From Escherichia coli (GTDB lineage Bacteria > Pseudomonadota > Gammaproteobacteria > Enterobacterales > Enterobacteriaceae): 64,000 nt of DNA. The stretch's first letter is position 1; each line of letters opens with the position of its first letter. The stretch is from NCBI RefSeq assembly GCF_046105845.1, contig NZ_CP151004.1, one strand, 5' to 3'. A model generated the notes under the pieces. It did no database searches, was not told the DNA's origin, and saw nothing but the letters and a program-made list of their open reading frames with translations. The position numbers and the translations under genes were made by a program. Shown here piece after piece: positions 39,586 through 45,405 of this stretch.

Positions 39586-39629
39586 ACGCACAGAATGTGA
39601 TGTCAGCACTCTGTGCGTCTGCTTTTATC
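39586..39629 (+). terminator. Intrinsic terminator after eamA
   Basis: 9-bp stem ACGCACAGA / TCTGTGCGT (15-nt loop) followed by CTGCTTTTATC; the stop codon of the downstream minus-strand regulator lies inside the U-tract. Confidence 0.6.
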
Positions 39630-40323
39630 GCGGGAAAAAGTACTTTACCTGGAACTCGAAAATATTGCTGTAAAGTAACGAATAATCCAGCGGAATAGAG
39701 TTACTATCCACAGCCTGGGTCTGAATTTTAAGTATGGGATCCCGTGGGCTGATCCGTAAAATACTGGCGATTTCTGGGGTAGGAAAAGTAGGGGAGAAAG
39801 TTTCAAAGGTGCCAATGATTTTGATCCCGCATTCGTTCTCAATATACGAAAATTTGGATTTTTGCATATGTGCTACGGTTAAATCAGGAAAACGTGCCAC
39901 TGACATCCACGTTTCTTCTAATTGTGCTGCATTATCCTCAATGAATCGCAGTCTCTTTATGTAATAAACCTGCTCACCAGTCACTAAATTCAGCTCAGTC
40001 GCAATAGGGGGAGAAGCATCCTGCACTTCAAATTTCATAATCTGACTTCCTGCCTCCTTGCCGCTTTTATGCGCAATTTCACTGAAGCTGTTCATGTGAT
40101 CAATGTGTGCAACAAAATTCTTTTTTTGAATGTATGTTCCTGAACCATGCTTTCTATGAATAACTCCTTCGCCTTCCAGCAAGGATAATGCCTTACGCAG
40201 GGTATTACGCGAAACATTATAACGAACAGCGAGTTCAGCTTCTGACGGCAACAAATCACCAACATGCCATGAATAGCCATTGATCTCGGATTTAAGTAAG
40301 CGGGCAATCTTTTGAAAAATCAC
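39625..40323 (-). CDS. bgcR: GntR/HutC-family transcriptional regulator (wHTH + UTRA effector domain), divergent from the PTS operon
   Basis: 232-aa ORF with GTG start; N-terminal GntR HTH (LPSEAELAVRYNVSRNTLRKALSLLEGEGVIHRKHGSGTYI) and HutC-type C-terminal domain. Symbol assigned by architecture match to the bgc locus, not sequence-verified. Confidence 0.8.
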   Translation of the reverse strand: MIFQKIARLLKSEINGYSWHVGDLLPSEAELAVRYNVSRNTLRKALSLLEGEGVIHRKHGSGTYIQKKNFVAHIDHMNSFSEIAHKSGKEAGSQIMKFEVQDASPPIATELNLVTGEQVYYIKRLRFIEDNAAQLEETWMSVARFPDLTVAHMQKSKFSYIENECGIKIIGTFETFSPTFPTPEIASILRISPRDPILKIQTQAVDSNSIPLDYSLLYSNIFEFQVKYFFPR

Positions 40324-40482
40324 TTTTGCACCTTTTAAGAGCCATTGAAAACAAGGGGTTGAGTCCTGATTGGTTTATCGTATGGCCGAGTCGTTTAATT
40401 ATTACCCTGATGTTGAACAACTTTATTGCTGTATTACTGTGATCAATGTACCAGGACGTATAGCTACTGCGGGATATGATAT

Positions 40483-40495
40483 TTACACAATGTAA
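40483..40495. promoter_or_regulatory. Candidate operator palindrome in the regulator/PTS divergent promoter region
   Basis: Perfect palindrome TTACA-caa-TGTAA 27 bp upstream of the EIIB start codon; a CRP-like half-site (TGTGA at 40438-40442) lies about 45 bp further upstream. Confidence 0.3.
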
Positions 40496-40521
40496 TCTGT
40501 TATATACCAGTAAGGGAAAAT

Positions 40522-40833
40522 ATGAAAAAGATATTGTTAGTTTGCGCTGCGGGCATGTCAACCAGTATGCTGGTTAAACGTATGATTGATCATGCTAACG
40601 CTATTTCACTTGAAGTTAATATTTCCGCATTGGCGATTGCAGAGGCTAAAGGGAAAATTAAAAATAACGAAGTTGACGTTGTTTTACTTGGCCCGCAAGT
40701 TCGCTTTCAGAAACCAGAGATTGAAGCTGTTGCACAGGGGAAAATGCCTGTAGCTGTTATCGAGATGAAAGACTATGGCACCATGAACGGACAGGCAGTT
40801 CTTGAATTTGCGATGAAACTACTGCAAGAGTAA
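40522..40833 (+). CDS. bgcE: PTS EIIB component, lactose/cellobiose family
   Basis: 103-aa ORF MKKILLVCAAGMSTSMLVKRM... with phosphorylatable Cys in LVCAAGMSTS; AAGGGA RBS. Symbol by architecture match to bgcEFIHA. Confidence 0.85.
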   Translation: MKKILLVCAAGMSTSMLVKRMIDHANAISLEVNISALAIAEAKGKIKNNEVDVVLLGPQVRFQKPEIEAVAQGKMPVAVIEMKDYGTMNGQAVLEFAMKLLQE

Positions 40834-40947
40834 GAATCTAATATTATTAAACTATTACCTGAACTAACTTTTCACACATCATAAAATGGATATGGCATAC
40901 ATGCTTTATTGGGATGTATAAATATCCAGAACAGCAGGTATAAAAAA

Positions 40948-42189: not shown

Positions 42190-42213
42190 TTATTACACTC
42201 TTAAGGATAAGTC

Positions 42214-43885
42214 ATGAATATAAAGACGCTTAACGTCAGCCTTTTGTCTTTTTCTATTATTACAGCATTGTTTCCGTTGAACGCGATGGCAACAAAATTA
42301 ACCATAGAGCAGCGCCTTGAACTGCTTGAAAATGAATTGTCGCAAAATAAACAAGAGCTAAGAGCAACACAGAATGAACTGGGGGTATATAAATCCCGAC
42401 TTTCGACCTTACAAAAAAGTATTACGGAAAATAAATACAAATCAGCCTCACTTGCTGAAATATCAGCGACATCTCCCGTCGCTGATAACATCAAAAATGA
42501 AAACGGTGAACAGAACTCGTCTGCCGCAGCGCATACTATAAATGGATCGCAGCAAGTTGCCGTTATTGAAAGTAAAGGCGACAAAACCACTATCGAAAGC
42601 GTGACCCTGAAAGATATCAGTAAATATATAAAGGATGATATTGGGTTCAGCTATCAGGGGTACTTCCGCTCAGGCTGGGGTACCGGAAATCATGGCTCAC
42701 CACAAACTTATGCAGCGGGTTCTCTGGGACGTTTTGGTAACGAGATGAGCGGTTGGTTTGACTTAACCTTAAATCAGCGTGTTTATAATCAGGACGGTAA
42801 AACGGCAAATGCGGTCGTTACCTATGATGGCAACGTAGGTGAGCAGTATAACGATGCCTGGTTTGGTGACAGTGCCAATGAAAATATCATGCAGTTCAGT
42901 GATATTTATCTGACAACGCGAGGTTTTTTACCCTTCGCGCCAGAGGCAGACTTCTGGGTAGGCAAACATAAACTCCCGCAATATGAGATCCAAATGCTGG
43001 ACTGGAAAACCTTAACCACGGATGTCGCTGCGGGTGTGGGGATTGAAAACTGGGCACTTGGTGTAGGGCTGTTTGATATGTCCTTAAGCCGTGATGATGT
43101 CGATGTTTACTCTCGTGATTTTACGCGTACCAGTCAGATGAATACCAATTCTGTGGATGTTCGTTATCGCAATATCCCGTTATGGGATGATGCAACATTA
43201 TCATTAATGGCTAAATATTCCGCACCAAATAAAACGGATCAACAACAAGATAATGAAAATGACGACAGTTATTTTGAAATGAAAGATAGCTGGATGCTGA
43301 CTTCTGTTTTACGGCAAAACCTGCAACGCGATACGTTTAATGAATTTACGTTACAGGTTGCCAATAATTCCTATGCCAGCAGTTTTGCCAGTTTCTCAGA
43401 TGCCAGTAACACGATGGCGCATGGTCGCTATTACTATGGTGACCATACCAATGGGATCGCCTGGCGTTTAATCTCTCAGGGCGAGATGTATCTTACTGAC
43501 AATATTATTATGGCTAACGCGCTTGTCTATTCTCATGGCGAAGATGTTTATAGTTATGAAAGTGGCGCTCATAGTGATTTTGACAGTATTCGCACCGTAG
43601 TAAGACCGGCCTGGATCTGGAATACATGGAATCAGACGGGGCTTGAATTAGGCTGGTTTAAGCAACAGAACAAAACACAGCAGGGTGTAACACTAAATGA
43701 ATCGGCTTATAAAACGACACTCTGGCATGCATTGAAAGTGGGTGAAAGTATTAGGTTCACGACCAGAAATTCGCTTCTATGGGACGTATATCAATATTCT
43801 GGATAACGAATTATCGAATTTTAAGTTTAATGAGAACAGCAAAGACGAGTTTATGGCCGGCATCCAGGCGGAAGTCTGGTGGTAA
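42214..43885 (+). CDS. bgcH: LamB/ScrY-family carbohydrate porin with N-terminal coiled-coil extension; apparent +1 frameshift near 43753
   Basis: 530-aa ORF (42214-43806) with signal peptide and coiled-coil ([35 protein letters not shown]). The +1 frame across 43757-43885 encodes [42 protein letters not shown]-stop, the LamB-type C-terminus, so the annotated ORF end is a frameshift artefact or lesion. Confidence 0.75.
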
Positions 43886-43909
43886 TCTATTTTAGTTAAG
43901 GAGTTGTGT

Positions 43910-45349
43910 ATGTCAGGATTTAAAAAAGGTTTTTTATGGGGCGGCGCGGTAGCCGCGCATCAGTTGGAAGGTGGCTGGAATGAAGGAGGAAAAGGCATCA
44001 GTATCGCTGATGTGATGACTGCTGGCGCTCACGGTGTGCCGCGTGAAGTGACAGAAGGCGTTATCGACGGACTTAATTATCCCAATCATGAAGCAATTGA
44101 TTTTTATCATCGCTATAAAACAGATATTCAGTTATTTGCCGAGATGGGATTCAAATGCTTTCGAACTTCCATTGCCTGGACACGAATCTTTCCGCAAGGT
44201 GACGAACAGGAGCCGAATGAAGAGGGTTTAAAATTTTATGATGATCTGTTCGATGAATGCCTGAAGCAGGGAATGGAACCTGTGGTGACGCTTTCGCATT
44301 TTGAGATGCCTTATCATCTGGTGACAAAATATGGTGGCTGGCGAAACCGTGAACTGATCGACTTTTTTATCCACTTCGCATCAACGGTCTTCACGCGCTA
44401 TAAAGAAAAAGTAAAGTACTGGATGACGTTTAACGAAATCAATAATCAGGTGAATTTCAGCGAAAGCCTGTGTCCATTTACTAATTCCGGTATCTTGTAT
44501 TCGCCAGAGGAAGATATCAATGAGCGCGAACAAATAATGTACCAGGCGGTACATTACGAGTTAGTTGCCAGTGCCCTGGCGGTACAGACTGGAAAATCGA
44601 TCAATCCTGAATTTAATATCGGCTGCATGATCGCCATGTGCCCCATCTATCCTCTGACGTGTGCACCCAACGATATGATGATGGCCACGAAAGCGATGCA
44701 TCGTCGTTACTGGTTTACTGATGTTCATGCGCGTGGATATTATCCGCAACATATGCTGAATTACTTTGCCAGGAAAGGGTTCAACCTCGATATCACACCA
44801 GAAGATAACGCGATTCTTGCCAGAGGTTGTGTCGACTTTATCGGCTTTAGCTACTACATGTCTTTTACTACGCAATTTTCGCCAGATAACCCGCAACTGG
44901 ATTATGTTGAGCCACGAGATTTGGTCAGCAACCCTTATATCGATACATCCGAATGGGGATGGCAAATTGATCCGGCAGGGCTACGTTATTCACTCAACTG
45001 GTTCTGGGATCATTTCCAGTTGCCGCTGTTTATTGTCGAAAATGGATTTGGTGCGGTTGACCAGAGACAAGTTGACGGCACGGTGAACGATCACTATCGC
45101 ATTGATTACTTTGCTTCCCATATTCGGGAAATGAAAAAAGCCGTAGTCGAAGATGGTGTTGACTTAATTGGCTACACCCCATGGGGCTGTATTGACCTGG
45201 TTTCTGCCGGAACAGGGGAAATGAAAAAGCGCTACGGAATGATTTACGTCGATAAAGACAACGAAGGGAAGGGAACGCTGGAACGGATACGTAAAGCGTC
45301 GTTTTACTGGTATCGGGATCTCATCGCCAACAATGGAGAAAATATTTGA
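43910..45349 (+). CDS. bgcA: GH1 6-phospho-beta-glucosidase
   Basis: 479 aa from ATG 43910 (TAAGGAG RBS 6 nt upstream); GH1 motifs present: acid/base TFNEIN and nucleophile IVENGFG; BglA/AscB-like. ORF track begins at TTG 43904. Confidence 0.9.
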
Positions 45350-45375
45350 GACTTCAGGAAGATATTACGGAGATA

Positions 45376-45399
45376 TCAGGCTCTGTGATCAGAGCCTGA
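45376..45399. terminator. Strong hairpin between the GH1 gene and marB (terminator-like)
   Basis: Perfect 10-bp inverted repeat TCAGGCTCTG-tgat-CAGAGCCTGA; 6 nt from the marB stop; no clear U-tract on either strand. Confidence 0.4.
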
Positions 45400-45405
45400 C
45401 AATAA

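Follow-up and report, generated by a model that had tools for sequence, protein, structure and literature searches.

In the 64,000-nucleotide stretch of Escherichia coli DNA considered here (contig NZ_CP151004.1 of RefSeq assembly GCF_046105845.1; "the window" below means this whole stretch, and all positions are counted within it), the genes eamA and marB are held apart by a block of 5.81 kb (~39582-45394). It comprises a divergent regulator of the GntR/HutC type followed by genes for the IIB, IIC and IIA proteins of a phosphotransferase system (PTS), a sugar porin and a 6-phospho-beta-glucosidase of the GH1 family. We hold with high confidence that this block is the known bgc locus (bgcR divergent from bgcEFIHA), and that the copy at hand is an optional and decaying one, old and not mobile, dead for uptake, and struck first in its porin gene. 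The locus itself is nothing new in kind, having been described in 2009 (Neelakanta, Sankar & Schnetz, Appl Environ Microbiol 75:2284) and being a routine item of annotation. The sequence-only reading of this DNA had seen in the block an intact five-gene operon; that part of it fails, as both the IIC gene (by a 451-bp deletion) and the porin gene (by the deletion of TT) are broken.

The identification draws on several comparisons. The order of the genes follows from the open reading frames (ORFs), which were examined in the window at 37.5-47.5 kb, and from their family matches, and the NCBIfam, Pfam and PDB assignments agree with the kinds of product that had been read from the letters beforehand. 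A divergent GntR-type bgcR and, in this order, IIB, IIC, IIA, porin and phospho-beta-glucosidase are all present; five intact operon genes are not. The match in content and order to bgc, which the sequence-only reading had proposed, agrees with two papers that cite Neelakanta et al. 2009: one describes bgc as a five-gene operon activated by BgcR, with IIB, IIC and IIA proteins and a phospho-beta-glucosidase, which serves the use of cellobiose, arbutin and salicin when temperatures are low (PMC3585215), and the other names four cryptic beta-glucoside operons in E. coli, bgc among them (PMC4488073). It holds equally for genes c1955-c1960 of strain CFT073, which appear in a comparative study under "PTS system, cellobiose specific" as a cluster of six (PMC2831201) and which are all intact there. 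The two loci share the genes and their order, the site between marB and eamA, the type of regulator, the PTS family, the porin and the GH1 enzyme, at 96-99% amino acid identity; they differ in the 451-bp deletion of bgcF and the 2-bp frameshift of bgcH in the window.

Two lesions and their order

The first of the two pseudogenes, bgcF (40948-41819, plus strand), encoded the IIC protein. Alignment to the reference sequence XJ6.1 and to CFT073 reveals the loss of 451 bp at window position 41328, with a 1-bp microhomology at a junction that lies in unique sequence. Since 451 is not a multiple of three, the frame is shifted, and the gene now encodes 127 native residues followed by 31 out-of-frame ones up to a stop at 41424 (a stub of 158 residues, 40948-41424), whereas its 3' remnant, corresponding to native residues 278-440, is out of frame and runs to 41819. 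The region accordingly appears as two ORFs (40909-41424 and 41292-41819) that overlap but differ in frame. An exact look-up of the 175-residue downstream ORF returned no match, because gene callers choose another start for it (giving 132 residues in the SRR28309099 assembly). Residues 128-277 have gone, and with them the GIHG motif (253-256). IIC proteins of the lactose/cellobiose PTS family have 10 transmembrane segments together with the GIHG and E motifs, and the crystal structure of ChbC is said to place in GIHG the conserved histidine of the sugar site. The intact IIC gene of XJ6.1 (1,323 bp, 440 residues) yields a product that aligns from end to end with that structure (bcChbC, 3QNQ; E 5.6e-57), whereas the two fragments in the window cover only 1-110 and 278-420 in TIGR00359, a cellobiose IIC model of 424 positions. 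Thus, of the components of a lactose/cellobiose PTS (TC 4.A.3), IIB and IIA are complete and IIC is not, with model positions 111-277 missing and GIHG gone.

The second pseudogene, bgcH (42214-43879, plus strand), encoded the porin. Here TT was lost from a run of four T at 43751-52, such that ATTTTAGG became ATTAGG. The ORF ends at 43806 after 530 residues, as against 557 in the intact protein, and the last 48 native residues (ending in AGIQAEVWW) are swapped for 21 unrelated ones. The product is a LamB-type barrel (Pfam LamB, PF02264, 1.4e-67; Sugarporin_N, PF11471, 2e-6) that shares with ScrY the periplasmic coiled-coil extension at the N-terminus and differs from ScrY and LamB in its frameshifted C-terminus. 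It scores under the LamB family cut-offs of NCBIfam, and a phmmer search against PDB found no match at E<=1e-5. The LamB match covers model positions 1-333 of 378, which falls short of a complete 18-strand barrel with its C-terminal aromatic residue. An outer-membrane protein is expected to need its last strands, and the aromatic residue at its C-terminus, for the barrel to close and insert, and from its sequence the BgcH of this copy is very probably non-functional. The porin of XJ6.1 shows a variation of its own: at 1,668 bp and 555 residues (4766-6433 of the XJ6.1 stretch) it ends in IQAEV, the two terminal tryptophans being absent because of a premature stop, whereas CFT073 and most members of the cluster have 557 residues and end in VWW.

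The distribution of the two lesions sets their order. Five contigs, drawn from no fewer than four data sets (ERR13115083, SRR12605517, SRR28309099 and the E. coli genome at NCBI), encode the exact 530-residue porin, whereas an exact-protein look-up finds the 158-residue IIC stub on only two, those of the NCBI E. coli genome and of SRR28309099. Over 11.1 kb the ERR13115083 assembly matches the window at 100% identity, except that it retains the 451 bp and has an intact IIC of 440 residues; that of SRR28309099 is 100% identical with the deletion included. We further compared window positions 39400-45700 by megablast with 5,426 complete E. coli genomes, in which every full-length match falls into two pieces and extends over 6,754 bp, against the 6,301 bp of the query. 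Across that same set, neither the 50-mer over the deletion junction nor the one over the TT deletion was found in a single genome. These 50-mers were chosen such that each half was shorter than the megablast word, a 100-nt junction query being uninformative through the joining of its halves from intact genomes; as a positive control, 50-nt halves of the bgcF junction region were recovered from 2,506 genomes. The porin frameshift, then, arose first and is common to a small clone. The IIC deletion came later and within that clone, and it is very recent, because the otherwise identical ERR13115083 and all the complete genomes lack it.

The site, its borders and its relatives

In E. coli K-12 MG1655 the 5.8-kb block is absent: as the sequence-only reading had stated, eamA and marB are adjacent and convergent there, with a short terminator spacer of 30 bp as their only separation. 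Its homology with the window ends at 39570/39571 and restarts at 45403/45404. Another empty allele, that of the O145 strain RM9872, locates the indel more closely. It has the same end of eamA as the window (VRG followed by the stop codon), with homology running through that stop codon, and on the right its homology returns from GCCTGA (~45395), inside the right-hand hairpin, with GCCTGA...ACTACAT in common. The points at which this homology breaks and resumes delimit the indel to ~39582-45394, with its left edge directly after the eamA stop codon and its right edge within a shared terminator. In RM9872 about 19 bp (CAAGCCCCGATATGCCGGG) stand in place of the block and form most of that allele's own terminator hairpin. 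This spacer is not built from block-end sequence; hence neither allele is a simple deletion derivative of the other.

Two apparent complications of the borders dissolved in the same comparison. EamA ends in KVGS in MG1655 and in KVRG in the window (39571-39580), in CFT073, in XJ6.1 and in the empty O145 allele; since the empty allele also has KVRG, the last codons of eamA vary independently of the presence of bgc. A left junction inside these codons was accordingly rejected, the break at 39571 being K-12's own variant of eamA, and so was a "third allele" in O145 strains, which is a divergent form of the empty site.

Both borders coincide with hairpins in gaps between convergent genes. The one between eamA and bgcR (39586-39618) is an inverted repeat with folding energies of -20.3 kcal/mol on the plus and -23.3 on the minus strand (z -3.4 and -4.3), and is likely a bidirectional terminator. 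The one between bgcA and marB (45376-45399; -18.8 and -20.7 kcal/mol, z -3.1 and -4.1) is kept in CFT073 and Escherichia albertii, and its right arm is common to the terminator of the empty allele. The sequence-only reading had put the left junction in the terminator tail of eamA and a strong hairpin at the right one; stable hairpins are in fact present at both ends. It had set the limits of the block at 39619-45405, which the empty allele moves to those given above. A scan for consensus promoters and terminators gave no more sites than shuffled sequence and detected neither junction hairpin, and folding and cross-genus footprinting were used in its place. On the left the block is preceded by ydeE (37299-38486, minus strand) and eamA (38681-39580, plus strand); on the right marB (45406-45624, minus strand) is followed by marA, marR, marC and ydeA.

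Among the complete genomes the full-length locus is present in 2,492 of 5,426 (46%), from many animal hosts, with a best identity to the window of about 99%; the remainder, MG1655 among them, match at the eamA and marB ends only. That identity, being no higher, raised the question of a Shigella origin for the window, an idea rejected because exact proteins of the window trace to an E. coli contig and because the window is free of insertion sequences. Carriers include CFT073, Nissle 1917 and ATCC 11775, which count among the B2/ExPEC strains (phylogroup B2; extraintestinal pathogenic E. coli). The accessory nature of the locus and its absence from K-12 are as had been proposed, while the accompanying emphasis on B2, septicemic and uropathogenic strains was too narrow; indeed, the prevalence and range of hosts are far wider than the title of Neelakanta et al. 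2009 suggests. Nucleotide identity between the window and CFT073 comes to 96.9-98.4% within the locus; for the core genes on either side it is 96.4-99.1%.

A scan of species-representative genomes extends the comparison beyond the species. In E. albertii NBRC 107761 the six genes adjoin marB-marA-marR in the same order at 82-96% amino acid identity, and the junction and hairpin on the marB side are as in the window but for one substitution. In Citrobacter sp. On2M and Salmonella enterica subsp. diarizonae the six genes keep this order but sit elsewhere on the chromosome. Klebsiella, Raoultella, Enterobacter, Cedecea, Kluyvera and Ewingella present a second architecture, in which GH1 lies upstream of bgcR-IIB-IIC-(IIA)-porin in inverted orientation; Buttiauxella likewise has GH1 upstream of bgcR on the opposite strand. 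In several loci of this architecture, at the thresholds applied, nothing matched IIA in the interval from IIC to the porin. The abstract of Neelakanta et al. 2009 is said to report a porin BgcH, Bgc+ mutants with a promoter-up mutation, a prevalence in phylogroup B2, the presence of bgc in E. albertii and homologues in Klebsiella, Enterobacter and Citrobacter; the loci that we found in E. albertii and in those three genera agree with this account.

The remaining genes and the predicted pathway

The remaining four genes have kept their full length, and their products are 96-99% identical in amino acids to those of CFT073. BgcE, the IIB protein of the lactose/cellobiose family (40522-40833, plus strand; 103 residues; TIGR00853, 1.2e-24; Pfam PTS_IIB; 99% identity to CFT073), retains the active-site cysteine motif VCAAGMSTS. 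BgcI, the IIA protein of the same family (41847-42158, plus strand; 103 residues, or 105 from an alternative ORF start at 41841; PRK10454, 3.5e-30; TIGR00823, 9.4e-29; 96% identity), has at residue 76 the motif HAQDH, that of the active-site histidine. BgcA (43910-45349, plus strand; 479 residues, or 481 from an alternative start at 43904) scores 1032 bits with PRK09589 against a cut-off of 624 and bears the motifs NEIN at 175, ENGFG at 377 and TGEMKKRYG at 435, which answer to the acid/base NE(P/I) glutamate, the nucleophile ENG glutamate and the phosphate-binding S..K.Y region of GH1 6-phospho-beta-glucosidases; the GH1 gene of XJ6.1 is 1,440 bp long. Its best matches in PDB are phospho-beta-glucosidase structures of Streptococcus mutans (3PN8/4F66, 6e-241), and it also matches E. 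coli BglA (2XHY, 6e-203).

The regulator BgcR (39625-40323, minus strand; 232 residues; 98.3% identity to CFT073) combines an N-terminal winged helix-turn-helix with a C-terminal UTRA effector domain. NCBIfam assigns it to the GntR/HutC type, and the Pfam GntR and UTRA domains on the identical gene of the ERR13115083 assembly place it in the HutC subfamily of the GntR family. YvoA/NagR and DasR are its structural relatives in PDB. It remains below every NCBIfam equivalog cut-off, and hence has no named orthologue. Aligning the intergenic region between bgcR and bgcE across 12 loci from 11 genera brought out two footprints. The inverted repeat GTT(C/T)A-N16-TGAAC (40393-40419), whose columns are invariant or nearly so in this set, could be the operator of BgcR. 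Downstream lies a candidate CRP site, TGTGATCAATGTACCA (40438-40453), with TGTGA (40438-40442) invariant in 12 of 12 loci; its centre is some 41.5 nt upstream of where transcription would start, to judge from a putative -10 hexamer, TATGAT (40475-40480, plus strand), and this spacing suggests a class II arrangement. Neelakanta et al. 2009 reportedly found bgc to depend on CRP. Further into the operon, the 55-nt gap between the IIA and porin genes contains a hairpin on the plus strand (42162-42189) with a perfect 11-bp stem (UUCCUCCAGUG CGAUAG CUGGAGGAA region), within the minimum-energy fold of 42150-42220 at -20.7 kcal/mol; this could be an intra-operon attenuator or an element that stabilises the mRNA.

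Set against other beta-glucoside systems, bgc is distinct from each. The chb operon (chbBCARFG) has the same split IIB, IIC and IIA proteins of the lactose/cellobiose family, is itself cryptic for cellobiose and CRP-dependent, and supplies the next-best models (PRK10499, PRK10297 and PRK10454); however, it has a GH4 enzyme (ChbF), an AraC-type regulator together with NagC and no porin, and all bgc scores are under the chb equivalog cut-offs. The bgl operon (bglGFBH), AT-rich and polymorphic in E. coli (PMC2646131), likewise handles aryl-beta-glucosides, is cryptic and includes both a GH1 phospho-beta-glucosidase and the LamB-family porin BglH, but it relies on a fused EIIBCA of the glucose family (BglF) and the antiterminator BglG, in contrast to the split lactose-family PTS and GntR regulator of bgc. 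For S. mutans and Streptococcus pneumoniae, whose phospho-beta-glucosidases include the closest solved GH1 relatives (3PN8/4F66), the bgu and cel loci also combine a GntR-type regulator with a lactose-family PTS and a GH1 enzyme (PMC3585215); they are Gram-positive and have no porin, and BguR represses, whereas BgcR is reported to activate (PMC3585215).

Drawing on what is known of lactose-family PTSs, ScrY/LamB porins and GH1 phospho-glycosidases, we advance the following pathway for an intact copy. Transcription would start from a CRP-dependent promoter helped by BgcR. Beta-glucosides would pass the outer membrane through BgcH, and the phosphoryl group would be relayed from EI and HPr to the histidine of BgcI, thence to the cysteine of BgcE and finally to the sugar bound in BgcF, coupling uptake to phosphorylation at C6. 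BgcA would then split the 6-phospho-beta-glucoside into glucose-6-phosphate and an aglycone or glucose. In the window the core of the IIC translocation domain is lost, as are the last barrel strands of the porin and its C-terminal aromatic signal. To judge from this, bgc must be dead for uptake in this strain, since its IIC is destroyed, and growth on arbutin, salicin or cellobiose by way of this locus should be negative because of the IIC and porin lesions. The premature stops may in addition lower the expression of bgcI, bgcH and bgcA by polarity.

Alternative explanations and the meaning of the decay

Whether the operon might still be whole depends on how real the two lesions are. That the window holds a potentially functional five-gene operon, allowing growth on beta-glucosides after activation, is in keeping with its four intact genes of six, close to those of CFT073, and with the conserved motifs of its promoter region; but the frameshifted IIC, reduced to its two terminal fragments, and the porin without its native C-terminus already refute it at the level of the sequence unless the assembly is wrong at both sites, and we give it hardly any credence. 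Errors of sequencing or assembly at both sites, with an intact locus behind them, are very improbable as well. A homopolymer of four T is where a TT loss might be miscalled, and the larger deletion is confined to the window genome and one Logan assembly, possibly of the same isolate; against this, the same frameshifted porin recurs across at least four data sets, and a clean loss with 1-bp microhomology in unique sequence, found also in a short-read Logan assembly, is untypical of assembly errors. One may also suppose that the intact genes retain functions of their own, the decay being a selective loss of the uptake parts alone, with BgcA acting on phospho-beta-glucosides imported by chb, asc or bgl and BgcE and BgcI serving as spare phosphocarriers. 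The absence of lesions in bgcR, bgcE, bgcI and bgcA, catalytic motifs included, speaks for this; yet the lesions are so recent (0 single-nucleotide polymorphisms relative to the sister assembly over 11 kb) that intactness is uninformative about selection, polarity would probably reduce expression downstream of the stops, and the operon is reported as cryptic (PMC4488073). We consider this supposition unlikely, if less far-fetched than the preceding two.

The age of the block is a separate matter from the state of its genes. Three observations would suit a recently acquired mobile island: the GC content of the block (42.6%, the window outside it having 49.4%), its patchy occurrence in E. coli, and the clusters at other sites in Citrobacter and S. 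enterica subsp. diarizonae, which imply earlier horizontal transfer. They are outweighed by the absence of mobile hallmarks and by the signs of age. As the sequence-only reading had stated, there is no integrase or transposase among the listed ORFs, no transfer RNA gene anywhere in the 64-kb window and no significant flanking direct repeat at the block ends, and no insertion sequence (IS) was found in the window. Moreover, divergence between strains is the same in the block as in its flanks, and E. albertii has an identical junction at 82-96% amino acid identity. A recent island is therefore a most unlikely source, and the old indel proposed at the outset fares well: because divergence equals that of the flanks and E. 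albertii shares the right junction with its hairpin, the comparison identifies the block as an old, non-mobile presence/absence polymorphism at the eamA-marB terminator, common to E. albertii.

Some points nevertheless weigh against the overall picture of a decaying bgc locus. The name bgc depends on papers that cite the original description, on its abstract and on gene content and order, with the CFT073 locus as a surrogate for the sequence of strain i484. The 451-bp deletion is in only two assemblies, perhaps from the same isolate or even the same reads; since SRR28309099 may be the window genome's own reads, independent confirmation of the deletion is not guaranteed, and an assembly artefact or an event of laboratory passage keeps a small probability. 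In the promoter, the right half of the candidate CRP site is weak (TACCA).

Truncated bgc products are met with elsewhere too: a 408-residue porin in Shigella boydii (5 contigs), a 533-residue porin (23 contigs), a 461-residue GH1 protein on 116 contigs, including those of Shigella sonnei, and, in strain A30, a porin gene split by an insertion of IS903B. We tentatively raise the possibility, though we would not yet favour it, that bgc is subject to recurrent and independent inactivation across E. coli and Shigella, with two successive hits in the clone of the window.

The surroundings of the locus furnished a few further observations. A full-length match to the Hfq-binding small RNA STnc560 (36870-37083, plus strand; 281.9 bits against a gathering score of 55) is the sole Rfam match in the window; it lies between a dgcZ homologue and ydeE, opposite the position of mgtS/mgtT in K-12 and CFT073. 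In strains Ch1 and TUM1886 the 25 kb of window positions 1-25000 are spread over about 36 kb in a two-piece match, which takes in a "helicase RepA family protein"; these strains therefore carry an insertion of about 11 kb that the window lacks. The neighbourhood in CFT073 has pseudogenes or remnants of hipA, yneK, mgtT, ydeI, ydeJ and a LysR regulator (pseudogenes at 9286-11610, 11891-13192, 22672-22773, 34894-34999 and 36258-36466 of its compared stretch), and at the position of yneK the window has a full-length ORF of 371 residues (48736-49851).

For this strain, the immediate consequence is that bgcF and bgcH should be annotated as pseudogenes and that predictions of beta-glucoside use should not count bgc. 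For the species, a locus found in nearly half of the complete genomes is not a marker specific to extraintestinal pathogens. Its junction at the eamA/marB terminator, common to E. albertii, suggests that an old polymorphism has been maintained through homologous recombination, and with its ordered lesions, porin and then IIC, this copy shows on a small scale, and with dates, how a cryptic operon decays. If the recurrent inactivation raised above were true, bgc would be a tractable example of a cryptic operon under the control of H-NS and CRP that is being lost in real time or, alternatively, a sign of selection against its porin or permease.

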